Virus record (IMG/VR): IMGVR_UViG_3300031857_000156
Span: 79-64,078 of that record
Source: a virus
Lineage: Duplodnaviria; Caudoviricetes
Direction: 5' to 3' (one strand)
Length of the DNA stretch: 64,000 nucleotides
This document shows, in pieces, positions 2,663 to 64,000 of the stretch. Every line of letters begins with the position of its first letter. The first letter of the stretch is position 1. The notes under the pieces were generated by a model that was given only the letters and a program-made list of their open reading frames with translations, was not told the origin of the DNA and did not search any database. The translations under genes and the position numbers were made by a program.

Positions 2663-2673
2663 ACTTATACAAA
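2663..2673 (-). promoter_or_regulatory. Phage middle/late promoter core (TTTGTATAAGT)
   Basis: One of 11 copies of a TTTGYATWAGT-like motif, each just upstream of a gene or RNA in sense orientation. Confidence 0.7.
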
Positions 2674-8906: not shown

Positions 8907-8917
8907 ACTTATGCAAA
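8907..8917 (-). promoter_or_regulatory. Phage middle/late promoter core (TTTGCATAAGT)
   Basis: Consensus copy upstream of the ATG at 8869. Confidence 0.7.
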
Positions 8918-12800: not shown

Positions 12801-13214
12801 TTATAAATTAGCAATTGGAATTTCTATTGGGTTATTTTGAATAATTCCAAATTCTACTAATACATCTCCAATTTGTTTTTTAAATTGAATTTGTTCCCAC
12901 ATTTCAGAATTTGCTATTACTTCTGGATCAAGTTCTTGAAGTAGTGATTCAGAATTTATTAAAGATTTTCTTGTTGTTGTGTATTCGGTTCCAACAAGAG
13001 GCGAAATGTATGACAGGTCGGCATCTGGAGAGATTTGTGCCGCAATAGCCTCTACGGGAGAAGCAAATTGCTTGATGATATTTTCTAATTCTATTTGGTC
13101 TTTTGGTAATGGGTTAGTTAATTTTATTTGCGCCCAAGACCCATCATCAAAAGTGACATCTACAATTTTTAATTGATCATCAAACTTTGTAATTATATAT
13201 TTCAATTCATTCAT
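12801..13214 (-). CDS. Hypothetical protein in the AT-rich fibre cassette
   Basis: 137 aa ORF coupled to the Gly-rich adhesin gene. Confidence 0.65.
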   Translation of the reverse strand: MNELKYIITKFDDQLKIVDVTFDDGSWAQIKLTNPLPKDQIELENIIKQFASPVEAIAAQISPDADLSYISPLVGTEYTTTRKSLINSESLLQELDPEVIANSEMWEQIQFKKQIGDVLVEFGIIQNNPIEIPIANL

Positions 13215-14140
13215 GCTAATCCTCCGGCTACTGTGCCATTATTGTTTAAAGTTACGCTATTAGATCCTTTAACTAAATATCTGCCAGCGGTTCCAAATGT
13301 AGATCCAGAAGATCCAGCTACTCCACTTCCAGCATTTCCGTTTGCTCCGGTTGACCCAGTTGCTCCGGCGGTTCCCGAATTTCCAAATGTCCCGCCATTT
13401 CCACCTGTTCCACCTGTTCCACCTGTTCCTGCGTTTGTTCCTCCAGCGGCTCCAGCAGACCCACTCAATCCGTTAGATTGAGATTGGCTGTATCCTTGTC
13501 CGGCTCCACCGTTGCCCGCAGCGCCGCCTGCTCCTCCGGATGTGGTAGTTAAGTTGTAGCACCAACCACTAGCGCAGGCGACACCACTTTTTTGTGGAAG
13601 GCAATGTCCTGTCTCGCAAAACGAAAATCCGCCGTTATTACAACCTGCATTGCAGGTTGGCCCATCTGCGCCCGGGTTTCCGTAAGTTTTAGTTTGGCCT
13701 TGTCCTCCGGTTCCACCTGCTCCGCCCTTACCGCCACCGCCACCCCCGCCGCGAATGTTTGCGCCAGAATTGTTGTTGATTACAACAGTTTGGTTTGCAT
13801 AATTAGCGTTAATTGCATCGCCGCCATTACCACCAACTCCACTTGTTCCAGCAGCCCCACCAAAACCATCAATGTTTCCGCTATTGTTAATAGTGATTGT
13901 TGATCCAGTTGGAAATTGACCAACTGTAAGGGCTGTGCTACTTCCAGTTCCACCAACTGTTACGCCAGAGTTGATGTTTAAAATTACATTTTTTGCTTCT
14001 GTTGGCGATCCAGCAGCCGTGAACAAATTGTAATTTGTTGTTGTCGCTGAAAGCGTCAATGTAATTGTTGGAAGCCCATAAGAACCTCCAACAAATGCAC
14101 TAATAATTCCTGTCACGAAACATTCCCCGTAATTACACAA
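13211..14140 (-). CDS. Gly-rich adhesin (T-even gp38-like receptor-recognising protein)
   Basis: INNSGNIDGFGGAAG and IRGGGGGGG polyglycine motifs with a Cys-rich loop; real start probably near 14116. Confidence 0.7.
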   Translation of the reverse strand: MCNYGECFVTGIISAFVGGSYGLPTITLTLSATTTNYNLFTAAGSPTEAKNVILNINSGVTVGGTGSSTALTVGQFPTGSTITINNSGNIDGFGGAAGTSGVGGNGGDAINANYANQTVVINNNSGANIRGGGGGGGKGGAGGTGGQGQTKTYGNPGADGPTCNAGCNNGGFSFCETGHCLPQKSGVACASGWCYNLTTTSGGAGGAAGNGGAGQGYSQSQSNGLSGSAGAAGGTNAGTGGTGGTGGNGGTFGNSGTAGATGSTGANGNAGSGVAGSSGSTFGTAGRYLVKGSNSVTLNNNGTVAGGLA

Positions 14141-19057: not shown

Positions 19058-21452
<2,395 letters not shown>

Positions 21453-22803: not shown

Positions 22804-22834
22804 ACTTATGCAAAAAAGGGCCTAAATAGGCCCT
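22804..22834 (-). promoter_or_regulatory. Bipartite phage promoter AGGGC-N18-GCATAAGT
   Basis: Exact 18-nt spacing, shared with four other copies. Confidence 0.75.
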
Positions 22835-26754: not shown

Positions 26755-26785
26755 ACCTATGCAAGACTTTTTTAATTTACGCCCT
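26755..26785 (-). promoter_or_regulatory. Bipartite phage promoter AGGGC-N18-GCATAGGT
   Basis: Exact spacing; lies only a few nt upstream of the ATG at 26748. Confidence 0.7.
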
Positions 26786-31072: not shown

Positions 31073-31103
31073 ACTTATGCACAATAGCCGCTAGGCGCGC
31101 CCT
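31073..31103 (-). promoter_or_regulatory. Bipartite phage promoter AGGGC-N18-GCATAAGT
   Basis: Exact spacing. Confidence 0.75.
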
Positions 31104-33684: not shown

Positions 33685-33730
33685 ACCAGTGCCTCCATAT
33701 ACCTACTTATACAAAAAATAAATGGGGACA

Positions 33731-33951
33731 GCTGTCAAGGGTTGCGGGGGTTGCGGGGGTCTAAACCAGGTCCCCCTCTCGGTTTATATTTTTTATTTTC
33801 AAAAAAAAAATAAAAGTGAAATAGACCCCCGCAACCCCCGCAACCCTTGACAGCAAAAAAATTTTACCAACAAAATCAATAACTTACAAAAGTGCGGCAT
33901 AGAGAAAAAAGGGCCTCAGACCCTTGACACGACCCCGGCAACCCTTGACAA
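33731..33951. repeat. Origin-like element, copy 1 (33-bp perfect inverted arms around an AT-rich core, extra iterons, IHF-like site)
   Basis: Arms at 33731-33763 and 33822-33854; AATCAATAACTTA at 33874-33886 fits WATCAAN4TTR. Confidence 0.8.
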
Positions 33952-34532: not shown

Positions 34533-34560
34533 AAAACCACCCTGAAAAAACCAGTATATT
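34533..34560 (+). promoter_or_regulatory. Early promoter repeat 1
   Basis: AAAACCACCCTGAAAAAACCAG-TATATT; one of five near-identical 28-mers. Confidence 0.8.
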
Positions 34561-34589
34561 GAGACCATTACATAACAGGAGATCTCACC

Positions 34590-36043: not shown

Positions 36044-36071
36044 AAAACCATCCTGAAAAAACCAGTACAAT
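36044..36071 (+). promoter_or_regulatory. Early promoter repeat 2
   Basis: 28-mer ending in TACAAT. Confidence 0.8.
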
Positions 36072-36099
36072 AGCAACACCACAACACGGAGAAAACACC

Positions 36100-36264: not shown

Positions 36265-36461
36265 ACATCGACACCATCCCGCAGCAAGTAATCCGCCACA
36301 GCAAAGGGCCCGAGGGCTGGGCCCGCGCCACCATGGGCCCGATCGACGGCCGGCACTGGGACGCCACCGATCGGCAGTGGATCCAGTGGCTGCAGGACCA
36401 GGGGCAGGACGTCGTCACGATCGGCGACACCATGTATCAGATCGTCACGCCGCGGGAATAA
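36261..36461 (+). CDS. Early hypothetical protein
   Basis: ATGA-coupled to the upstream gene. Confidence 0.65.
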   Translation: MNIDTIPQQVIRHSKGPEGWARATMGPIDGRHWDATDRQWIQWLQDQGQDVVTIGDTMYQIVTPRE

Positions 36462-36487
36462 AACCACCCTGAAAAAACCAGTATAAT
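36460..36487 (+). promoter_or_regulatory. Early promoter repeat 3
   Basis: 28-mer ending in a perfect TATAAT. Confidence 0.82.
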
Positions 36488-36498
36488 GTAACGATCAC

Positions 36499-37334: not shown

Positions 37335-37625
37335 ATGACAACGACACAACAACAGCCCAAGGTTCAGATGCTGGGCATCAAGATCAAGGCCAAGATCAAC
37401 CTTACCGCGGACGACTGGCAGCTGTACAGCGCCATGTCCGGCCGCGAGACGGCAGCCCGGCGCATGAACCGGGCCATTGAGCGCAAGCTGGCCAAGGGCG
37501 AGATCGGGTCCCTGCTGGACGTGCTGCAACCATACGCCAAGTGGGGGGCCATGGACAGCGAAAGCTACCACACGGTGTACGAGATCCTGCGCCGGCTGGG
37601 CCTGGACGACGACAAGTTTATTTAA
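37335..37625 (+). CDS. Early hypothetical protein
   Basis: AGGAG RBS. Confidence 0.7.
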   Translation: MTTTQQQPKVQMLGIKIKAKINLTADDWQLYSAMSGRETAARRMNRAIERKLAKGEIGSLLDVLQPYAKWGAMDSESYHTVYEILRRLGLDDDKFI

Positions 37626-37651
37626 AACCACCCTCAAAAAACCAGTAAGAT
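37624..37651 (+). promoter_or_regulatory. Early promoter repeat 4
   Basis: 28-mer ending in TAAGAT. Confidence 0.78.
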
Positions 37652-37675
37652 ACTAACCACAAAAGGAGCAACACC

Positions 37676-38497: not shown

Positions 38498-38525
38498 AAA
38501 ACCACCCTCAAAAAACCAGTAAGAT
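38498..38525 (+). promoter_or_regulatory. Early promoter repeat 5
   Basis: Identical to repeat 4. Confidence 0.78.
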
Positions 38526-38550
38526 ACTAACCACAACAGGAGCACACACC

Positions 38551-40812: not shown

Positions 40813-41400
40813 ATGGAGCATACCGACTTGAAAAGAGATAGGACAGCGCTGTCAGACTACATCCGGGTGCTGTACAGGCACCCGGTGCTGCCGGTGCAGG
40901 AAGAGGAAAGGCTGTCAGGCATGATACAGGCCGGAGACAACGCAGCGCTGGATAAACTGGTGCGGCACAATCTCCGGTTTGTTATTTCCGTGGTCAAGGA
41001 CATGCCGATTTGGCAGAATGGCTCGGTGCCTTTCGAGGACATTGTGGCCATCGGCAACGAGTCCCTGCTCAAGGCAGCCAGGAAGTGGGTGCCTCGTAAT
41101 GGCGCGAGGTTTGCAACGTACGCTAAGCCATTCATTGTCAAGGGTATCAGGAGGACCCTTGATAATGAATGGTCAATGATCCGCGTGCCGGTAAACATCC
41201 TCGAAGAGATACGCCGCATGAAGTATCTCGAGCGGGTTTTATCGCAAGAGCTCAGACGCGAGCCAACGCAGGCCGAGCTTGCCAATCGAATGAAAGTGCA
41301 CGAGAGCCGGATAGTCGAGCTGCAAAACTTACTGACTCTCGAGCCAGTATCGCTTGAGGCATACAATCAGGAGAAATTCCACGAGGAGAGCGAAGAATGA
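40813..41400 (+). CDS. Sigma70-family factor with regions 1.2, 2 and 3 only
   Basis: LSDYIR...EEERL (1.2), HNLRFV...RFATYA (2), IRVP...REPTQAELA...PVSLE (3); stops before region 4. Confidence 0.88.
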   Translation: MEHTDLKRDRTALSDYIRVLYRHPVLPVQEEERLSGMIQAGDNAALDKLVRHNLRFVISVVKDMPIWQNGSVPFEDIVAIGNESLLKAARKWVPRNGARFATYAKPFIVKGIRRTLDNEWSMIRVPVNILEEIRRMKYLERVLSQELRREPTQAELANRMKVHESRIVELQNLLTLEPVSLEAYNQEKFHEESEE

Positions 41401-41600
41401 CACCGATCCAAAAAGAGGTGTTCGATGAGCTGGGAAACCTAAAGCTTATCGAGGTGATCGACTCAGAGACCAGCCAACACATGGCTGACTTTCTGTGGGA
41501 TCCAAACGATGATCAGACCCCTGAGAATCGTAATAAGTTTAGAGACTGGGTTACTAACTGGGTGAATACCCGAATGAAAGGAAAGCAAAATGGAAACTAG
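41397..41600 (+). CDS. Hypothetical protein
   Basis: ATGA-coupled to the sigma gene. Confidence 0.65.
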   Translation: MTPIQKEVFDELGNLKLIEVIDSETSQHMADFLWDPNDDQTPENRNKFRDWVTNWVNTRMKGKQNGN

Positions 41601-41748
41601 GCAAGAACTAATCCTGAAATTTATGCTGGCTTTGGCCAGCTCAACCGAGGTCACGAGGATGTTTGCGCAGAATGACAGCTACCTCGTAGCCAATCGAGTG
41701 TACCTCAATGCGGCAAAACTTGCCGATCAGTACCTCGACCAAATCTAA
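41590..41748 (+). CDS. Hypothetical protein
   Basis: 52 aa ORF read by eye, AAGGA RBS. Confidence 0.55.
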   Translation: METRQELILKFMLALASSTEVTRMFAQNDSYLVANRVYLNAAKLADQYLDQI

Positions 41749-41752
41749 TGTA

Positions 41753-41771
41753 AATGAGAATCATTCGCATT
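41753..41771. promoter_or_regulatory. Fur-box-like site
   Basis: AATGAGAATCATTCGCATT resembles the Fur consensus. Confidence 0.55.
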
Positions 41772-41989
41772 TGTCAGGGGTTGCCGGGGTCGTGTCAGGG
41801 ATATGGACACGAGTTTCCATATACCACGCCCTCTGCAACCCATTGATTTAATTGATGAAAAAATTTGCTGTCAAGGGTTGCGGGGGTAGCGGGGGTCTAT
41901 TTCACTTTTATTTTTTATTTTTTAAAAAGAAAAATAAATTTAAGAGGGAAGTAGGTTTAGACCCCCGCAACCCCCGCAACCCTTGACAG
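41771..41989. repeat. Origin-like element, copy 2 (inverted relative to copy 1)
   Basis: Same palindromic arms at 41867-41899 and 41958-41989, AT-rich core, IHF-like site at 41836-41848; abuts the primase gene. Confidence 0.8.
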
Positions 41990-42029
41990 AGTTAAAGTAA
42001 AACTTTAAGTTTGTATTAGTAGAGGAACC

Positions 42030-44336
42030 ATGACCAGACCAACAGCACTACAAGTAAAATTCGACAACATACCCATGACCCTGAAGATGATTCCGCGGTG
42101 GGTTGTGTGGCAGTTTGTCGAGGTGGAAAATGGGGATGCCCGCAAATGGGCCAAAATTCCCCTACAAGCCGCTACTGGGCTTCGGGCTAGTAGCACCAAC
42201 CCCGACACCTGGGCGGACTTCCTAACAGCCCAAAAAGCCTATTTGACGGGCAAGTACGACGGCATCGGATTTGTCTTCATAAATTCTGACAATCTGATAG
42301 GCATCGACTTGGACGATTGTTTGGACGCAAATGGGCAAGTCACAACCGAAGACGCAGCCACGATGCTCGAGAATATCGACGGCTACGCTGAGAGGAGCCC
42401 ATCAGCGACGGGCGTGAAGATCTTCACCAGGACCGCGCTGCAGTCAGCGCACGTTGACCACGCCAAAGGCCTGGAGATCTACCCACACGCACGTTACTTC
42501 ACAGTGACGGGCCATCACATCCAGGGTGCCATACCCGAGCATGAAATTGATCTGTCCCCATTTATTCCACCCCGCACGATCCATAGATCGGGGGACGACT
42601 TTGCGGACTACACCCCGCCGGTGGACGACTATGACCTGGCGCGGGTGGAGCGGGAGATCCTCACCCACCTGCCGCCCGACTGCGGTTACACGGACTGGCT
42701 GACGGTGGGCATGGCGATGCATCACCAGTTCCAGGGCTCGGACGATGCGCTCGAGATGTGGGACAACTGGTCCTACCAAAATGGGGACTGTCCCTCGTAC
42801 TCGCCCAACGAGTGCCGGCGCAAGTGGGCGACGTTCTCCAAAAAGGGAGGGGCGACGCTGCGCTCGCTGATCTTCAAAATCAACCAGACAAAAAAGCAGG
42901 AGGCCCTAGCCCGCGGCGAGATCGTGCTAGATCAGGCCCCGCTGGACCACGCTCGCAACTTCTTGGAGGCTAACCACACAACCGAGGAGGGCGTGCGGCT
43001 GGTGCACTACGCGGAGGACTACTTCGTGCACAGGGCCACGCACTACGAGGAGGTGGAGGAGGCGACAATCCGTTCGCAGCTGTACAAGTTTTTGGACAAG
43101 TGCAAAAAGACGGACCGCAGGGGCAATCTCGTGCCGTTTATGCCGACGCCGGCGACTGTCACGGCCGCGCTCGATGCGACAAAGGCGCTCACGCACCTTG
43201 AGAACCACGCCAACACCAAGCCGCCGGTGTGGCTGGACGGCTACGCGCAGGGCAAGCCCGCGGCGTCAAAGCTCATCAGCGTCAAGAACGGCCTCTTCCA
43301 CCTGGAGGAGTCGGTGCTGCTGCCGCACAGTCTGGGGTTTTTTACGCAAAACAGTCTGCCGTTTGACTATGACCCGTACGCCAAATGTCCGACGTGGGAG
43401 ATGTTCCTCACGCAGATATGGGGCCACGATCAGGAGTCAATCGACACGCTGCAGGAGATCTTCGGCTACGTGCTGTCGGGAGACACGCGCCAGCAGAAAT
43501 TTTTTAACGTCATCGGTCCGCGCCGCTCAGGCAAGGGCACGATCAACAAGGTGCTGGTGGAGCTGCTCGGGCAGCACAACACCGTGGCGCCGGAATTAGG
43601 AGAACTTTGTGATACTTTCGGTCTTCAGCCTTGGCTGGGCAAGCTGCTCGCTAGTTTTACGGACGCAAGAGCACCGGAACGCAATCGAAGTGCTGTTGTC
43701 TCTCAGCTTTTACGGATTGTAGGGGGCGACACAGTCACGGTGAACCGCAAAAACAAAGAGGCCTGGAACGGCTATTTGCCAACGCGGATCATCGTGTACT
43801 CCAACGAGGTGTTGCAGCTGACAGAAAACAGCAACGCGCTGACTGGTCGCATGATCGTGCTCAAGATGACGCAGTCGTTTTACGGCAAAGAGGATACCGA
43901 GCTTGCATCTAAGCTGATGAAAGAGCTCTCGGGCATCTTTAATTGGAGCATGGTGGGCCTGCGCCGGCGGATGGAGCGCGGGGGCCATTTCCTGCAGCCA
44001 ACAAGTGGCGTGGACTTGCTCGAGATCATGGAGGATCTATCCAATCCGATCAATTTGTTTTACCGTGATGTCCTAATCGAGGACCCGGAGGGCACGGTGG
44101 ACAAAGACGATCTGTTTAAGGTCTTCAAAAAATGGTCACAGGAAAAGGGCATGCACCCCGGCACTGATCTGTCGTTCAAACGTAAATTCCTGGCAGCAAC
44201 GCAGGATAAGCCGATCTCAACCGCTGTCTCGAGGGTTGAGGGCCGACGGGAGAACGTGTACCGTGGCGTCAAGCTCACGGACAAGGCGCAGGGTTTCGTC
44301 AACAGTTTGAGTGAATTTAACGAAAGGATTTTCTGA
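42030..44336 (+). CDS. Primase-polymerase / PriCT-2 / D5-like SF3 helicase
   Basis: IGIDLDD and ERSPSATGVK (AEP), WLTVGMAMH...WDNWS (PriCT-2), Walker A GPRRSGKGT. Confidence 0.9.
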   Translation: MTRPTALQVKFDNIPMTLKMIPRWVVWQFVEVENGDARKWAKIPLQAATGLRASSTNPDTWADFLTAQKAYLTGKYDGIGFVFINSDNLIGIDLDDCLDANGQVTTEDAATMLENIDGYAERSPSATGVKIFTRTALQSAHVDHAKGLEIYPHARYFTVTGHHIQGAIPEHEIDLSPFIPPRTIHRSGDDFADYTPPVDDYDLARVEREILTHLPPDCGYTDWLTVGMAMHHQFQGSDDALEMWDNWSYQNGDCPSYSPNECRRKWATFSKKGGATLRSLIFKINQTKKQEALARGEIVLDQAPLDHARNFLEANHTTEEGVRLVHYAEDYFVHRATHYEEVEEATIRSQLYKFLDKCKKTDRRGNLVPFMPTPATVTAALDATKALTHLENHANTKPPVWLDGYAQGKPAASKLISVKNGLFHLEESVLLPHSLGFFTQNSLPFDYDPYAKCPTWEMFLTQIWGHDQESIDTLQEIFGYVLSGDTRQQKFFNVIGPRRSGKGTINKVLVELLGQHNTVAPELGELCDTFGLQPWLGKLLASFTDARAPERNRSAVVSQLLRIVGGDTVTVNRKNKEAWNGYLPTRIIVYSNEVLQLTENSNALTGRMIVLKMTQSFYGKEDTELASKLMKELSGIFNWSMVGLRRRMERGGHFLQPTSGVDLLEIMEDLSNPINLFYRDVLIEDPEGTVDKDDLFKVFKKWSQEKGMHPGTDLSFKRKFLAATQDKPISTAVSRVEGRRENVYRGVKLTDKAQGFVNSLSEFNERIF

Positions 44337-44560
44337 TGGAGACATGGGCAAAACCTGATCGGTGGGTCAAAATTGTTGCCACCAAAAAGCTGGGCTGCAT
44401 TCGTGCTGTTGATGAAAGAGGCCGACTGTCGATTGCAATCCCAAGCGAAAACGATTGGCCGTTTCCGACACGCGTATTTTGCGACATCGATAGCGTCGTG
44501 CCGGTAGGGGCTCCCAAAAAACCAAAGGTTGTGCATAACTTTGAGGAGGCGTTACTGTGA
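44336..44560 (+). CDS. Hypothetical protein
   Basis: Coupled ORF. Confidence 0.6.
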   Translation: METWAKPDRWVKIVATKKLGCIRAVDERGRLSIAIPSENDWPFPTRVFCDIDSVVPVGAPKKPKVVHNFEEALL

Positions 44561-45138
44561 ATGATTTTGACAAAGTGCTCGAGGACATCACACCGCGGTG
44601 TGTAGACATGCATCAGCATTTCCCCACGCTGCGTCGGCTGGCTAGCGAATGTGAGTCGTTCGTGGAGATGGGCGTGCGCGGGGCGTGCTCGGTGTGGGCG
44701 CTTGCTGCGGGGCTGGCTGAATCGCCGGCACCCAAAAAGTGGATGATCTACTTGGACATTGGTAACTGCAGGAGTCAGCTTCTCGAAGATACATGTGCAA
44801 AATACAACATCGACGCGCAGTGGATGCAGCACGACAGCCGCACCGTGTCTACGCCGCCAACAGACCTGTTGATGGTTGACACGCTGCACACTTACGGGCA
44901 GCTGGTGACCGAGCTTTTGCACCACCACCAGTGGGTAAACAAGTACATTGTCATGCACGACACCGAGGCGCCGTGGGGCATGCAAAACGAAGCCAACGAC
45001 GGATCGGCTAAGCAAGGTCTGCGTGCCGCGGTGCTGGATTTTTTGCTGATGTTCCCCAAAGAATGGGGCGTAAAAGAGCACCATTCTAATAGCCATGGAT
45101 TAACTATATTGGAGAGAAAAAATGCAAAAAGAACTTGA
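44557..45138 (+). CDS. Class I SAM-dependent methyltransferase (Methyltransf_24-like)
   Basis: VEMGVRGACS, DLLMVDTLHTY and IVMHDT motifs. Confidence 0.8.
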   Translation: MNDFDKVLEDITPRCVDMHQHFPTLRRLASECESFVEMGVRGACSVWALAAGLAESPAPKKWMIYLDIGNCRSQLLEDTCAKYNIDAQWMQHDSRTVSTPPTDLLMVDTLHTYGQLVTELLHHHQWVNKYIVMHDTEAPWGMQNEANDGSAKQGLRAAVLDFLLMFPKEWGVKEHHSNSHGLTILERKNAKRT

Positions 45139-45316
45139 ACAATTTAGACGGATTGTTAACAACGTGTGGGCGCGCTCGCTTGCAGCCATGATCGCTGTTG
45201 TAATCGGATTTGTATCGGGCATGCTGAGCGCGCAGTGGCGCATCATGGACGACTGCAAATTTATCAATAGCTTTCGGGTCGATAATCACGCATTCGCCTG
45301 CCAGCGCCGCATATGA
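45122..45316 (+). CDS. Small membrane protein
   Basis: TM helix and a Cys pair. Confidence 0.55.
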   Translation: MQKELEQFRRIVNNVWARSLAAMIAVVIGFVSGMLSAQWRIMDDCKFINSFRVDNHAFACQRRI

Positions 45317-45513
45317 AAAAGCCCCTACGGTTTGTAATTGAAACTGTGTTCTTGGCCGCTTTCTTGTTTGTTATGTTTGCATGGGGCATGCAACACGGCA
45401 AACGAGAAGCCCTGAAGACCGCGCTTTCGACTAACCCGGTGTCCGAAGAGCTCGAGATGGTTTGTCTCAGTATTTGGGCCACCGAACAAAACAAAAAGGT
45501 AAACCCAAAATGA
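45313..45513 (+). CDS. Small membrane protein
   Basis: TM helix, ATGA-coupled. Confidence 0.55.
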   Translation: MKKPLRFVIETVFLAAFLFVMFAWGMQHGKREALKTALSTNPVSEELEMVCLSIWATEQNKKVNPK

Positions 45514-45606
45514 CCGTCATCGTGTTACACGCCAAAAGTTTAGATCCGATATTCTTTGCGCTGTTTGCTATCGGGGTTGCAATGTTTGCTACATGGAGGA
45601 GCTACC

Positions 45607-45924
45607 GTGAAGATAAAAGTGAGTGGCGTTCCCTACGAGGTTGATAGTGAAAATTTAACGCAGGAGAGCAAAGTGAGCGACGGGGGCAAAGGCTCGGCGC
45701 CCAGGCCGATAGAAGATTGGGCGCGCTTTGAGAAGAACTGGGACGAGATATTTAAACCAGAAGTAAAGTCGCCATGCGTCGAGGTTTGCTTTTTAAACTT
45801 CGAGCAGGGCATGTGCATGGGCTGCAAACGCACACTGAATGAAATAGAAAACTGGTCTACGATGAACACAGAAGAAAAACGCGCGCTCATCGAGGCGTTG
45901 AAAACTAGGGAGCTTCATGGGTAA
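45607..45924 (+). CDS. Protein with a C-terminal DUF1289-like Cys domain
   Basis: SPCVEVC...CMGCKRTLNEIENW; GTG start after GGAGG. Confidence 0.7.
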   Translation: MKIKVSGVPYEVDSENLTQESKVSDGGKGSAPRPIEDWARFEKNWDEIFKPEVKSPCVEVCFLNFEQGMCMGCKRTLNEIENWSTMNTEEKRALIEALKTRELHG

Positions 45925-46498
45925 AAACTGGGGGTACTATCACGTCGACTGCGGCCACTTTCCGGCCGAGATAAAGCTGTGCTTTTCCAACGAGATGTTC
46001 CAGCGTGTGCTGCTCGATCACGGCATCACGGTCAAGGCCACCGCGCTGGATGAAGGCATAGCGGAGACGCACTATCTTACCGATGGCAAGATGGGCGTGA
46101 TTGTTATGGTGTTTGACTTAAAAGAATGCATCGACGAGGACCCGGCCTATCTAGCCGGAGTCATCGCGCACGAGGCCACACATTGCGTGTGCCGCGTGTT
46201 TGAGCACATTGGGGAAGAGCCAGACGAAATTGGCGAAGAGTCCCGCGCGTACCTCACCGAGCACATTGTGAAACAAATCACAACAGGCGTACGCATGGAG
46301 ATGGAAAAGAATGTTAGAAAAACAGATAGAGCAGTACCTGGGGAAAAAGGTAAAGGAAAACGGGGGGCTGAGCCTAAAGTGGATCAGCACAATAACGGGG
46401 GTGCCGGACCGAATAGTGTTCCTAAACCAAAAGATCCATCTGGTGGAGCTAAAAACAAGCGGCGGCGTATTGTCGGAAAGACAAAAGATAGTCTTTAA
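45917..46498 (+). CDS. HExxH (zincin-like) protein
   Basis: IAHEATH plus a downstream EESRAY; C-terminal tail overlaps the next gene. Confidence 0.6.
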   Translation: MGKNWGYYHVDCGHFPAEIKLCFSNEMFQRVLLDHGITVKATALDEGIAETHYLTDGKMGVIVMVFDLKECIDEDPAYLAGVIAHEATHCVCRVFEHIGEEPDEIGEESRAYLTEHIVKQITTGVRMEMEKNVRKTDRAVPGEKGKGKRGAEPKVDQHNNGGAGPNSVPKPKDPSGGAKNKRRRIVGKTKDSL

Positions 46499-46571
46499 AC
46501 AATTAGAACAACAGGGCTATCCAGTAACAATTTTGCGAAGCAAGGAGGAAGTTGATGGCTTTGTCACTTGA
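46311..46571 (+). CDS. VRR-NUC nuclease
   Basis: EKQIE...GVPDRI...VELK...LSERQ motifs. Confidence 0.88.
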   Translation: MLEKQIEQYLGKKVKENGGLSLKWISTITGVPDRIVFLNQKIHLVELKTSGGVLSERQKIVFKQLEQQGYPVTILRSKEEVDGFVT

Positions 46572-47007
46572 AAAACAATTGATGCGTAATTTTTTGTCTA
46601 ATGCAAAAAGAAGAGCAAAAAGAAAAAATTTACCATTTAATCTTGACAAAGACTATTTAAAATCCATCGTTCAGACACATTGCCCGGTATTTAAAACATC
46701 GTTTGTATGGGAGTGTTCTGGGCTTGGTAAAGGATTTACAAAGCCAAATTCCCCATCACTTGATCGAATTATTCCTGAGCTCGGTTATGTGAAGGGAAAT
46801 ATGGTTTTTATTTCGCACCTTGCCAATAAAATAAAACAAGATGCAACCGAAAAAGAATTGTATGCCGTAGCCGATTGGCTGCACGATAAACGCAAAGAGG
46901 TGTTAAATGCTTTTAAAGACAAATCTACATCCCTACCAGACTCGCCTGATACACCAGGCAGAAAAACTGCCGCACGTTGGCCTTTTCCTGGAGCCGGGCC
47001 TGGGTAA
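46552..47007 (+). CDS. HNH-like endonuclease
   Basis: CPVF...SPSLDRIIPELGYVKGN...ISHLANKIK; AT-rich. Confidence 0.75.
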   Translation: MMALSLEKQLMRNFLSNAKRRAKRKNLPFNLDKDYLKSIVQTHCPVFKTSFVWECSGLGKGFTKPNSPSLDRIIPELGYVKGNMVFISHLANKIKQDATEKELYAVADWLHDKRKEVLNAFKDKSTSLPDSPDTPGRKTAARWPFPGAGPG

Positions 47008-48241
47008 ATCGGTCACGGCATTAACTATTTTTACAGAAAGCAAACCAGGACGGACCCTGGTGGTTGCGCCTAAACGTGTTGCTGAATCTGTATGGGCGCA
47101 GGAATGTCAGAAGTGGGAGCATTTAAAAGATTTAAAAGTCACAAAGATCATGGGCACGCCGCGGGAGCGCCTGCTGGCATTGCACGGAAAATACGACATT
47201 TACATTATAAATGTCGACAATTTAGCGTGGCTTGTCGACAACTGGATACCAGGCAAATTTGATTATTTAATTATTGATGAAAGCTCTCGATTCAAAGACC
47301 CGAGCACAAAACGATTTAAAGCGCTTAAAACTGTGCTGAAGTCTTTCAAGCGCCGCATCATCACCACCGGCACGCCCACACCGCAAGGCCTTGGAGATCT
47401 GTGGTCTCAGGTGGCTATTCTTGATCTTGGTTCTAGGCTAGAAACAAGCCTTACAAAGTTTCGAGATAAATATATGCATGCCACCGAGCGCAATCGGCAC
47501 ACCAACGTGGTGTACAAATGGGAAGTGCGCCCCAATATGGACAAAGTAATTACAGACAAAATATCGGACATTTGTTTTAGTTTAAAAGCGGAAGATTATT
47601 TGACGCTACCCAAGCTGACAAATCTCTACCACAAAATAGAGCTTGAGTCGGACACAATGGAAAAGTATAAATATCTCAAAAAGGAGATGGTCAGTGAGAT
47701 CGATGGTCAGCAAATTACGGCGGTTACGGCGGCGGCGCTTGTCAATAAGCTTTTACAGTTTACCAGTGGCACCCTTTACACCGAAGACAACGGTCGTGCG
47801 TTCGCACACTCAGCCAAGATTGAATTTCTGGAGTCGCTTGTTGAAGAAAACAGCGCCCCGACTTTGGTCTTTTATCACTATAAATCGGCGTTAGAAAAGC
47901 TGCGGGAAACTTTTCCGGAGGCCGAGTTACTAACAGACGACAACATAGAAGGGTGGAGAGATGGCAAAATCAAGATGATGCTAGCGCATCCGCAGTCAGG
48001 AGGCATTGGATTAAACCTACAGTGCAACGTAGGCGATGTGGCGCAGTGTGTTTGGTACGACTTACCTTGGAGCTCAGAAAACTACATCCAGGCCAACGCG
48101 CGCATTTACCGGCAGGGACAAACAAAGCCGGTGATCATTCATCATCTGATGATTAAAAAGACAATCGACGAGCAAGTTATAAAAGTGCTGGAGGGTAAGA
48201 TCAGCCTGCAAGACGCGCTCATGGATTCATTAAAAATATGA
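46907..48241 (+). CDS. SNF2-family helicase
   Basis: PYQ, PGLGKS, IIDESS, TGTP, GIGLNLQ and QANARIYRQGQ motifs. Confidence 0.93.
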   Translation: MLLKTNLHPYQTRLIHQAEKLPHVGLFLEPGLGKSVTALTIFTESKPGRTLVVAPKRVAESVWAQECQKWEHLKDLKVTKIMGTPRERLLALHGKYDIYIINVDNLAWLVDNWIPGKFDYLIIDESSRFKDPSTKRFKALKTVLKSFKRRIITTGTPTPQGLGDLWSQVAILDLGSRLETSLTKFRDKYMHATERNRHTNVVYKWEVRPNMDKVITDKISDICFSLKAEDYLTLPKLTNLYHKIELESDTMEKYKYLKKEMVSEIDGQQITAVTAAALVNKLLQFTSGTLYTEDNGRAFAHSAKIEFLESLVEENSAPTLVFYHYKSALEKLRETFPEAELLTDDNIEGWRDGKIKMMLAHPQSGGIGLNLQCNVGDVAQCVWYDLPWSSENYIQANARIYRQGQTKPVIIHHLMIKKTIDEQVIKVLEGKISLQDALMDSLKI

Positions 48242-48546
48242 ATGTAATAAAATATAAAAAGAACGCAGCAGCCCCTCGTTTGTCCGACGAAGAGCCGGAT
48301 CTGATGGAGCAGGAGGATGTCGAGGGGATAACGATCACGCAGGGGGATGGATGGCTGCCGTGGACTCACGATGACTTAATTGATATACGTCGCGTCATAG
48401 ACGAACGTATGCCAATTAAGCAACGTGAAATCATGGAAGCTTTTCTGATGGGCAACACAGCCGCGGACTTGGGGGTGACAGAGAAGTACTGGCGCTATCA
48501 CTTCAAACGCGCGGTGGAGATTATTAAAAAGGAGCTGGGGGTATGA
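48238..48546 (+). CDS. Stand-alone sigma region 4-like HTH protein
   Basis: RMPIKQREIM...GNTAADLGVT...HFKRAVEIIKKELG resembles sigma70 region 4. Confidence 0.55.
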   Translation: MNVIKYKKNAAAPRLSDEEPDLMEQEDVEGITITQGDGWLPWTHDDLIDIRRVIDERMPIKQREIMEAFLMGNTAADLGVTEKYWRYHFKRAVEIIKKELGV

Positions 48547-49127: not shown

Positions 49128-49158
49128 AGGGCAAAAAGCCTAAAGATTCTGCATAAGT
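49128..49158 (+). promoter_or_regulatory. Bipartite phage promoter AGGGC-N18-GCATAAGT
   Basis: Exact spacing; upstream of the ncRNA region. Confidence 0.75.
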
Positions 49159-50729: not shown

Positions 50730-50760
50730 AGGGCACTTTTCAGTGCCCTTTTGCATTAGT
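50730..50760 (+). promoter_or_regulatory. Bipartite phage promoter AGGGC-N18-GCATTAGT, overlapping a terminator-like hairpin
   Basis: AAAAGGGCAC-TTTTCA-GTGCCCTTTT followed by GCATTAGT. Confidence 0.7.
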
Positions 50761-52374: not shown

Positions 52375-52385
52375 TTTGCATAAGT
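52375..52385 (+). promoter_or_regulatory. Phage middle/late promoter core (TTTGCATAAGT)
   Basis: Consensus copy upstream of the SSB gene. Confidence 0.7.

Positions 52386-63184: not shown

Positions 63185-64000
<816 letters not shown>

Follow-up and report, generated by a model that had tools for sequence, protein, structure and literature searches.

The virus record IMGVR_UViG_3300031857_000156 (64,078 bases, with direct terminal repeats and a lake-water context) carries two plus-strand genes whose products may together form a sigma factor in two pieces. The product of the first, at 40813–41400, is a truncated sigma-70-family factor of 195 amino acids (aa) that comprises regions 1.2 to 3 and ends in a short acidic tail. 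The second, at 48238–48546, encodes a conserved 102-aa protein that resembles sigma region 4 and is a candidate second sigma subunit. Positions refer to the window, the 64,000-nucleotide stretch analysed here, which is nearly all of the record. Its minus strand holds the packaging, head and tail genes at about 2.6–34.5 kb (terminase, portal, a major-head-like protein and tail fibres), and its plus strand holds early and replication genes at 34.6–57.4 kb, the latter including a D5-type primase, VRR-NUC, an SNF2 helicase, an exonuclease, ribonucleotide reductase and DNA polymerase. The GenBank phage collection contained no nucleotide match to the window, and a tblastn search of GenBank phages with the 102-aa protein was likewise empty. 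By portal protein, the nearest named relatives are the Caulobacter phages RW, KcrB, RLK and GB2A and an uncultured spring phage, at 50–53% identity.

The sigma identity of the larger protein is supported by several models. It matched Pfam Sigma70_r2 at residues 49–118 (expect value, E, 3e-8; 33.8 bits, cut-off 24) and Sigma70_r3 at residues 131–183 (profile positions 1–52 of 78; E 8.5e-8; 32.6 bits, cut-off 25.3), and it had no Pfam match to region 4. PHROG 351, ‘RNA polymerase sigma factor’, matched at E 7.9e-27, and NCBIfam RpoD_Cterm at E 1.1e-27 over profile positions 2–136 of 238 only. Although Pfam gave no match to region 1.2 in the protein itself, the N-terminus aligns with those of full-length sigmas, and PF00140 is precomputed for several homologues. 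The domain content thus agrees with the earlier note on this DNA, which had read regions 1.2, 2 and 3 in the gene and placed its end before region 4. The AlphaFold2 model had a mean predicted local distance difference test (pLDDT) of 80.9 and was confident over approximately residues 10–178, with the acidic tail (180–195) predicted to be disordered. Its best Foldseek matches were sigma-S and sigma-A in initiation complexes (E 5.9e-9; template modelling score, TM, 0.69). The phage residue E131, which is nearly invariant, aligns with E458 of Escherichia coli sigma-70, the glutamate contacting the TG of extended −10 promoters.

Judged from the sequences compared, the missing region 4 is a trait of this sigma family and no accident, because 112 of the 120 relatives listed are short (116–201 aa) and lack the region. 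Only eight distant full-length proteins carry it, and throughout the listed relatives (107–342 aa) it appears only at identities of 40% or less. The nearest full-length relatives are 286–333 aa long and 34–40% identical by BLASTP, one of them being named a Bacteroidales RpoD/SigA. In alignment with these proteins, which run on from an ‘SLD/SLE’ motif into the region 3.2 linker and region 4, the phage protein stops about 12 residues past the motif. A search of the whole 64,078-base record for PF04545 (Sigma70_r4) returned no match, and the identical search was positive in 14 of 14 control genomes. The best ‘phage’ match to the sigma, on a faecal contig, was set aside as a full-length 377-aa RpoD that is probably bacterial.

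The 102-aa protein belongs to a family of about 100 aa for which we found 157 relatives. One of the 120 relatives listed is named ‘sigma24 family protein’ (JGI), and every other name is ‘hypothetical protein’. Like the sigma family, this family has a constant length and many invariant residues, and both occur on hundreds of viral contigs. Near the N-terminus, residues 13–24 (48274–48309, plus strand) form an acidic motif, P-R-L-S-D-E-E-x-D-x-x-E, within a stretch predicted to be disordered (pLDDT <50). The columns R14, L15, S16, D17, E18, D21 and E24 were invariant in a 36-sequence alignment, and D21 and E24 remained so in a 34-sequence alignment that included distant clades; it is a probable docking motif. 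The family alignment also contains a conserved G-W-L-P-W and a C-terminal M-P-x-K-Q-R-E-I ... G-V-T-E-K-Y-W-R-Y-H that is like the helix-turn-helix (HTH) of region 4.2. Sub-threshold matches to Pfam Sigma70_r4_2, the commonest family among such matches, were seen in 10 of the 34 family members, with a best E of 0.0043. One distant member, P0265, matched NCBIfam SigH models at E 9e-6, which falls short of the curated cut-off; the match ran from the N-terminal motif to the end of the protein, over profile positions 123–207 of 218, which correspond to the linker plus region 4. Language-model neighbours included small viral and Bacillota proteins carrying Sigma70_r4, r4_2 or HTH_50. Taken together, these comparisons hint weakly at a sigma-4 identity.

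The small gene lies behind an SNF2-family helicase gene (46907–48241, plus strand), to which it is translationally coupled through an ATGA overlap at the stop codon, and in 70 of 80 sampled relatives it likewise comes after SNF2. An RNA-polymerase-associated SNF2 ATPase, RapA, exists in E. coli, and by analogy a link of this neighbour to transcription is conceivable.

Further support for the identity of the small protein comes from its predicted fold. In the AlphaFold2 model, residues 1–38 are disordered and residues 40–102 are confident, with mean pLDDT of 81–96 in 10-residue blocks. Residues 44–102 (48367–48543, plus strand) form a predicted four-helix domain with helices at 44–56, 60–70, 75–78 and 82–100, the last two making up the HTH and the final one bearing the recognition helix motif T-E-K-Y-W-R-Y-H. 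The four-residue helix 75–78 corresponds to a shortened first HTH helix. The earlier note had described this gene as an isolated region 4 with an acidic N-terminal linker and just such a shortened helix, and both the modelled fold and the acidic N-terminus bear this description out.

Comparison of the model with solved structures points in the same direction. Foldseek returned no match at E ≤0.001, and its ten top rows were all −35-binding domains of Mycobacterium tuberculosis SigL or SigD, or the SigL initiation complex (probability up to 0.99; target TM 0.48–0.72 for the isolated domains). The top ten VIA-align rows had Z scores of 9.1–8.0. Among them were region 4 of E. coli sigma-E on −35 DNA (Z 8.8; root-mean-square deviation, rmsd, 2.9 over 61 residues) and region 4 of SigD (Z 8.3; rmsd 2.2 over 57 residues; 32% identity), and rows 2–4 and 6–8, which are isolated region-4 domains and sigma-L in complex, had rmsd values of 1.9–2.9 over 57–61 residues. 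By title, 47 of the 50 VIA-align rows listed were sigmas or sigma-containing complexes, two were unclear and one, at rank 50, was the LuxR-type El222. As the Z values are middling, the case for a sigma-4 fold rests on the uniformity of these structural matches and not on their score. In the model, the topology looks like sigma-4 and not like LuxR/GerE, given an additional helix ahead of the HTH and a chain that stops at the recognition helix. Structure prediction followed by Foldseek and VIA-align therefore yields a model that appears sigma-region-4-like.

Among relatives, the truncated sigma gene and the small gene show strict co-inheritance. A search with the small protein yielded 515 viral stretches that encode a relative, of which 80 were taken; the truncated sigma was present at all 18 loci with at least about 9.5 kb of upstream sequence (16 within the flank and two just beyond it). 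Starting from the sigma, 80 of 205 stretches were taken, and 40 loci had at least 9.9 kb downstream. The small gene was found at 39 of these, lying 6.0–9.7 kb downstream in 33; of the remaining six, two are contigs already known as carriers and four have the small gene just past the flank. The one locus without it belongs to a record that stops about 10.3 kb downstream and so carries no information on this point. Co-occurrence across relatives, which the earlier note had suggested examining, thus held from both starting points, in loci whose sigma identity was as low as 46%. Both genes are absent from the outgroups, the two closest GenBank portal relatives (Caulobacter phage RW and the record MW202545.1; 50–53% portal identity). 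No fused form of the two proteins was found when the small-protein profile was run over 1.84 billion representatives, or among the sigma relatives listed. The small protein was matched by 34 clusters. These are 33–129 aa long, the exceptions being one repeat protein of 739 aa and one protein of 229 aa in which only the N-terminal part is shared.

One subclade (L195, L197 and the records behind L194 and L196; G008, G009, G011, G012) carries a diverged paralogue of the small gene, with a C-terminal extension, 0.5–0.9 kb upstream of the sigma gene. Two sigma-4-like copies were present in all four subclade records with enough sequence, the other copy being in the usual place after SNF2.

The two proteins occur together with a conserved promoter pattern. 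Repeat searches and pattern scans revealed a core, T-G-Y-A-T-W-A-G-T, which usually follows a run of T and looks like an extended −10 element. The window contains 10 copies of TG[CT]AT[AT]AGT, nine of them before genes; simple letter shuffles give 1.7. A second element precedes part of these cores: the exact pattern AGGGC-N17-TGCAT occurs five times, against 0.18 expected, and five was reached in no shuffle. AGGGC alone is not enriched (112 matches in the window, 138 expected), and with one mismatch allowed the bipartite pattern is at chance level (7 against 5.6), so that only the exact pattern is informative. Across 246 unique exact-core sites from the window and the relatives taken, AGGGC stands at exactly −22 in 79 and GGGGC in 27, and AGGGC appears at any other offset within 45 bases upstream in at most two sites. 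The consensus reads T-A-G-G-G-C-G-g-A-a-A, about ten variable bases, T-T-T and the core. On our own reckoning from the sigma-70 model, taking the core TG as the extended −10, RGGGC would fall within 1–2 bases of the canonical −35 position. The element is non-palindromic and therefore fits a monomeric reader such as sigma-4. We rejected the idea that AGGGC is a by-product of hairpins, because 100 of the 106 spacers lack a complementary GCCC, leaving six sites at most; two of the five window sites are hairpins. Orthologous promoters retain their class while their spacers diverge: the primase promoter lacked RGGGC in all eight relatives where it was detected, and the first promoter downstream of the small gene was of the AGGGC type in 10 of the 12 relatives having a site there. 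A bipartite promoter, as the earlier note had assumed, is thus real; it has the form RGGGC-N17-TGCATWAGT, is rigidly spaced and is kept at orthologous sites.

Within the window, bipartite promoters lie on both strands. On the plus strand, AGGGC-N17-TGCATAAGT at 49128–49158 is the first one past the sigma-4-like gene, and AGGGC-N17-TGCATTAGT at 50730–50760 has an AGGGC that is also the 5' arm of a terminator-like hairpin. On the minus strand are AGGGC-N17-TGCATAAGT at 31073–31103, in the structural module; AGGGC-N17-TGCATAGGT at 26755–26785, with a degenerate core; and AGGGC-N17-TGCATAAGT at 22804–22834, with AGGGC inside a hairpin. The core-only promoters are TGTATTAGT at 42012–42020 (plus), which stands before the primase gene and heads the operon containing the sigma-4-like gene; TGCATAAGT at 52377–52385 (plus); TGTATAAGT at 33705–33713 (minus), which heads the packaging and structural block of that strand; TGCATAAGT at 8907–8915 (minus); and TGTATAAGT at 2663–2671 (minus). 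A 39-base promoter-like repeat is present in five plus-strand copies before small early genes (34533–34571, 36044–36082, 36460–36498, 37624–37662 and 38498–38536). It consists of AAAACCACCCTGAAAAAACCAG and, after it, TATAAT-like hexamers. Conservation extends over about 22 bases ahead of the −10, yet a TTGACA-type −35 at 17-base spacing is not recognisable.

Several further observations concern these promoters in relatives. In five loci the sigma-4-like gene has a core-only promoter of its own (L040 9983, L042 9641, L072 9983, L195 16756 and L197 18741), whose spacer holds one or two copies of GCCCT, the reverse complement of AGGGC; these copies could allow autoregulation by the sigma-4-like product. 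In the L174–L179 group (e.g., L176 5630), the recognition helix reads V-T-K-K-Y-W-R-Y-H, with K for E, and CGGGC stands at −22 in six of six sites. This may be a covariation of protein and DNA; the loci are near-identical contigs, so it would count as one event at most. Many relatives (L110, L112, L115, L117–L119, L124, L141, L143, L148, L155, L195, L197 and L211) have an operator-like palindrome, ATTTCACA-N2-GTGAAAT, that overlaps the −35 region upstream of primase. This palindrome, which the window lacks, is probably bound by a dimeric regulator. An upstream motif, ATTTCACA..TGTGAAAT, had been considered as a second −35 class belonging to the second paralogue and proved to be this palindromic operator. 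The motif also occurs in loci where the second paralogue was not found, so the two-class idea is not supported.

Given domain content, predicted fold, co-inheritance and the conserved bipartite promoter, we consider it probable, with considerable room for doubt, that the phage builds a two-subunit sigma factor from the 195-aa and 102-aa proteins; the binding of the subunits, the assignment of RGGGC and the timing are all points that we infer. In such a scheme, the early block at 34.5–41.7 kb, which includes the sigma gene and the five TATAAT-ending repeats, would presumably be transcribed by the host holoenzyme. The 195-aa protein, with its regions 1.2, 2 and 3, would bind the host core RNA polymerase, as sigma factors do through region 2, and would read the −10-like T-G-Y-A-T-W-A-G-T, redirecting the polymerase to that sequence. 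The core-only promoter at 42012 would drive the operon that begins with the primase gene, includes SNF2 and reaches the small gene. A holoenzyme formed with a sigma that lacks domain 4 would leave the flap tip and the −35 position free. The 102-aa protein would supply domain 4 in trans, engaging the beta-flap tip and reading R-G-G-G-C(G) 17 bases upstream of the core. Docking, to either RNA polymerase or the large subunit, would be through its acidic N-terminal motif, which would replace the region 3.2 linker. Since the small gene lies behind a core-only promoter and the large one in the early block, the small subunit would appear later, opening the RGGGC promoters at 49128 and 50730 on the plus strand and at 31103, 26785 and 22834 on the minus strand.

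The earlier note had supposed that later expression of the sigma-4 piece could switch transcription from core-only to AGGGC-containing promoters. The order of the map fits this, with an early sigma gene, the small gene behind 42012 and the first AGGGC promoter, 49128, just downstream, and the same holds in relatives. Going further, we suggest only tentatively, as something possible more than expected, that domain 4 is a free, separately timed specificity subunit. It would be expressed from a −35-less promoter and would then make the holoenzyme RGGGC-dependent, as a feed-forward middle-to-late switch, and the two-paralogue subclade would exchange domain-4 modules on a single sigma core.

A number of results weigh against the two-subunit reading. 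The 102-aa protein had no match in Pfam, PHROG or NCBIfam, so that the window protein itself fits no sigma-4 model. The sole hhalign alignment to full-length sigmas placed residues 45–102 on region 4 without significance (E 0.086, probability 0.67), and profile searches with the family alignments and with P0265 against the sequences of solved structures gave nothing significant, GerE being best at E 0.3. VIA-align warns that Z below 8 may mean only a common arrangement, and four-helix HTH domains are widespread. The primase and SNF2 genes co-occur with the gene pair equally faithfully, and all relatives are syntenic; the co-inheritance is therefore partly shared ancestry and could reflect a shared core genome. 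The truncated sigma gene and the small gene stand 6.8 kb apart in separate operons. RGGGC is missing from 140 of the 246 core sites, including five in the window and some that head late-gene blocks, and the large subunit may therefore work alone; sigma-70 without region 4 has been reported to be active at extended −10 promoters. For the same reason the later-expression switch stands only in part: core-only promoters also head the late blocks at 33713, 8915 and 2671, so the switch is not clean and cannot be all-or-none. Finally, what would tie RGGGC to the small protein is solely the absence of any other domain 4, and another phage protein could read the element.

An alternative would be a self-sufficient sigma that recognises T-G-Y-A-T-W-A-G-T in the extended −10 manner, the 102-aa protein being a separate sigma-4-like HTH factor and no stoichiometric subunit. 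We regard this as unlikely, if deserving of serious attention. In variants of it, the small protein could be a class-II-type activator at RGGGC, or a beta-flap decoy that shuts off −35-dependent host promoters. The majority of core sites without RGGGC (five of them in the window) and the placement of the two genes in different operons suit such an arrangement. So does the existence of stand-alone small sigma-4-like or HTH proteins in viruses and Bacillota (Atlas neighbours carrying HTH_38, HTH_50 and Sigma70_r4, at scores of 0.91–0.93), as does T4 gp33, which holds the beta-flap tip without reading DNA (PMC7892883). The two-subunit reading accounts better for a sigma whose missing domain 4 leaves the flap tip and −35 position free, for an RGGGC that is rigidly spaced and non-palindromic as for a sigma-4 monomer, and for strict co-inheritance with the truncated sigma, with a paralogue adjoining the sigma gene in one subclade. 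The two accounts differ mostly in stoichiometry and dependence.

The small gene overlaps or closely follows SNF2 in the window and in 70 of 80 loci, and it shares its block with the primase, the VRR-NUC nuclease and the exonuclease. Together with the absence of a significant sequence match to sigma factors, this would suit an HTH protein of a replication and recombination module that has no promoter role, with RGGGC read by some other factor or being no protein site at all. We judge this improbable: the structural neighbours are nearly all sigma region 4 and not replication proteins, the paralogue of the subclade lies beside the sigma gene and not beside SNF2, and a conserved −35-like element needs a reader when the sigma has no domain for it. 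That the sigma gene is a decayed remnant and the small open reading frame a chance or unrelated one deserves hardly any credence. The lack of family matches for the small frame speaks for it, and nothing else does; the conservation, constant lengths and invariant residues of both families contradict it.

Sigma factors are normally single chains, in which a linker through the polymerase holds domains 2 and 4 at a set distance. To our knowledge, the few two-piece sigmas are either like extracytoplasmic function (ECF) sigmas (SigO–RsoA, Tn916 Sig7–Sig8) or work with a non-sigma co-activator (T4 gp33). By domain content and predicted fold, region 2 and region 4 of the phage factor lie on two co-inherited polypeptides, which would place the pair in the split-sigma class. 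In Bacillus subtilis, SigO–RsoA (YvrI–YvrHa) distributes sigma functions over two polypeptides that jointly recognise −10 and −35 (PMC7826278). Tn916 Sig7–Sig8 is likewise presented as a two-subunit sigma with joint −10 and −35 recognition, and SPO1 gp33/gp34 and T4 gp55/gp33 are cited there as split sigmas (bioRxiv 10.64898/2026.10.01.756105). The division of −10 and −35 functions between two polypeptides would be common to these systems and the phage. SigO–RsoA and Sig7–Sig8, however, are ECF-like, with region 2 on the small protein and region 4 on the larger one, whereas in the phage the large subunit is RpoD/RpoS-like with regions 1.2–3, the small one would be linker plus region 4, the cut falls after region 3, and the genes are 6.8 kb apart. 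None of the SigO–RsoA or Sig7–Sig8 families is among the Pfam and NCBIfam matches of the phage proteins, which were not compared with them directly.

Other known systems share some of these features. T4 late promoters lack a −35 element and depend on the sliding clamp (gp45). T4 gp55 is a region-2-type factor without domain 4, and the small gp33 grips the beta-flap tip and is structurally unrelated to sigma region 4 (PMC7892883). The likeness is that of a phage specificity factor without domain 4 accompanied by a second small phage protein. In contrast to T4, the small protein here is predicted to be sigma-4-like, 106 of the 246 core sites have a −35-like element at a fixed distance, and region 3 is retained in the large subunit; the pair does not belong to the gp55/gp33 type, which has a non-sigma-4 co-activator and −35-less promoters. 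SPO1 gp33/gp34, cited as an early split sigma (bioRxiv 10.64898/2026.10.01.756105), is alike in that two phage proteins together direct late transcription. The small protein is also like LuxR/GerE-type regulators in being a small four-helix HTH protein, GerE having been its best, non-significant match (E 0.3). LuxR-type proteins usually carry a further, C-terminal helix for dimerisation and recognise palindromic sites. The modelled phage protein, unlike these, has one more helix ahead of the HTH and terminates with the recognition helix, and its presumed DNA element is no inverted repeat.

Our literature searches turned up no description of this phage group or of a sigma(1.2–3) with a separate sigma-4 partner. 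Split sigmas as such are already established; what sets this case apart is the cut after region 3, a small subunit predicted to be sigma-4-like, the conserved −35-like element and the distance between the genes. If the two-subunit reading is true, a widespread group of freshwater phages cuts an RpoD-like sigma after region 3 and provides the DNA-reading domain 4 in trans. The covalent 3.2 linker would then be dispensable for −35-dependent initiation, and these phages would offer a natural system for linker-free recruitment of domain 4. Such an arrangement would also suggest a simple timing device for phage gene expression, as well as orthogonal promoter and sigma parts for synthetic biology. 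With a clear bipartite consensus and two small proteins, the idea is directly testable in vitro.

Elsewhere in the window, the tail-fibre genes at 19058–21106 and 13211–14140 (both minus strand) contain collagen-like repeats with a 9-base period. The window ends (1–120 and 63812–64000) carry G+C-rich 6- and 12-base tandem repeats, GGTGCAGGTGCTGGAGCC-like, that adjoin the terminal repeats of the record. Directly upstream of the primase promoter lies a G+C-rich 30-base inverted repeat on the plus strand, with arms at 41870–41899 and 41958–41987 and an A+T-rich centre. Its possible roles include those of an origin, of a bidirectional terminator and of a regulatory module. Its right arm is copied, ending in TTGACAG, before the core-only promoter at 33713 (approximately 33714–33760, minus strand).

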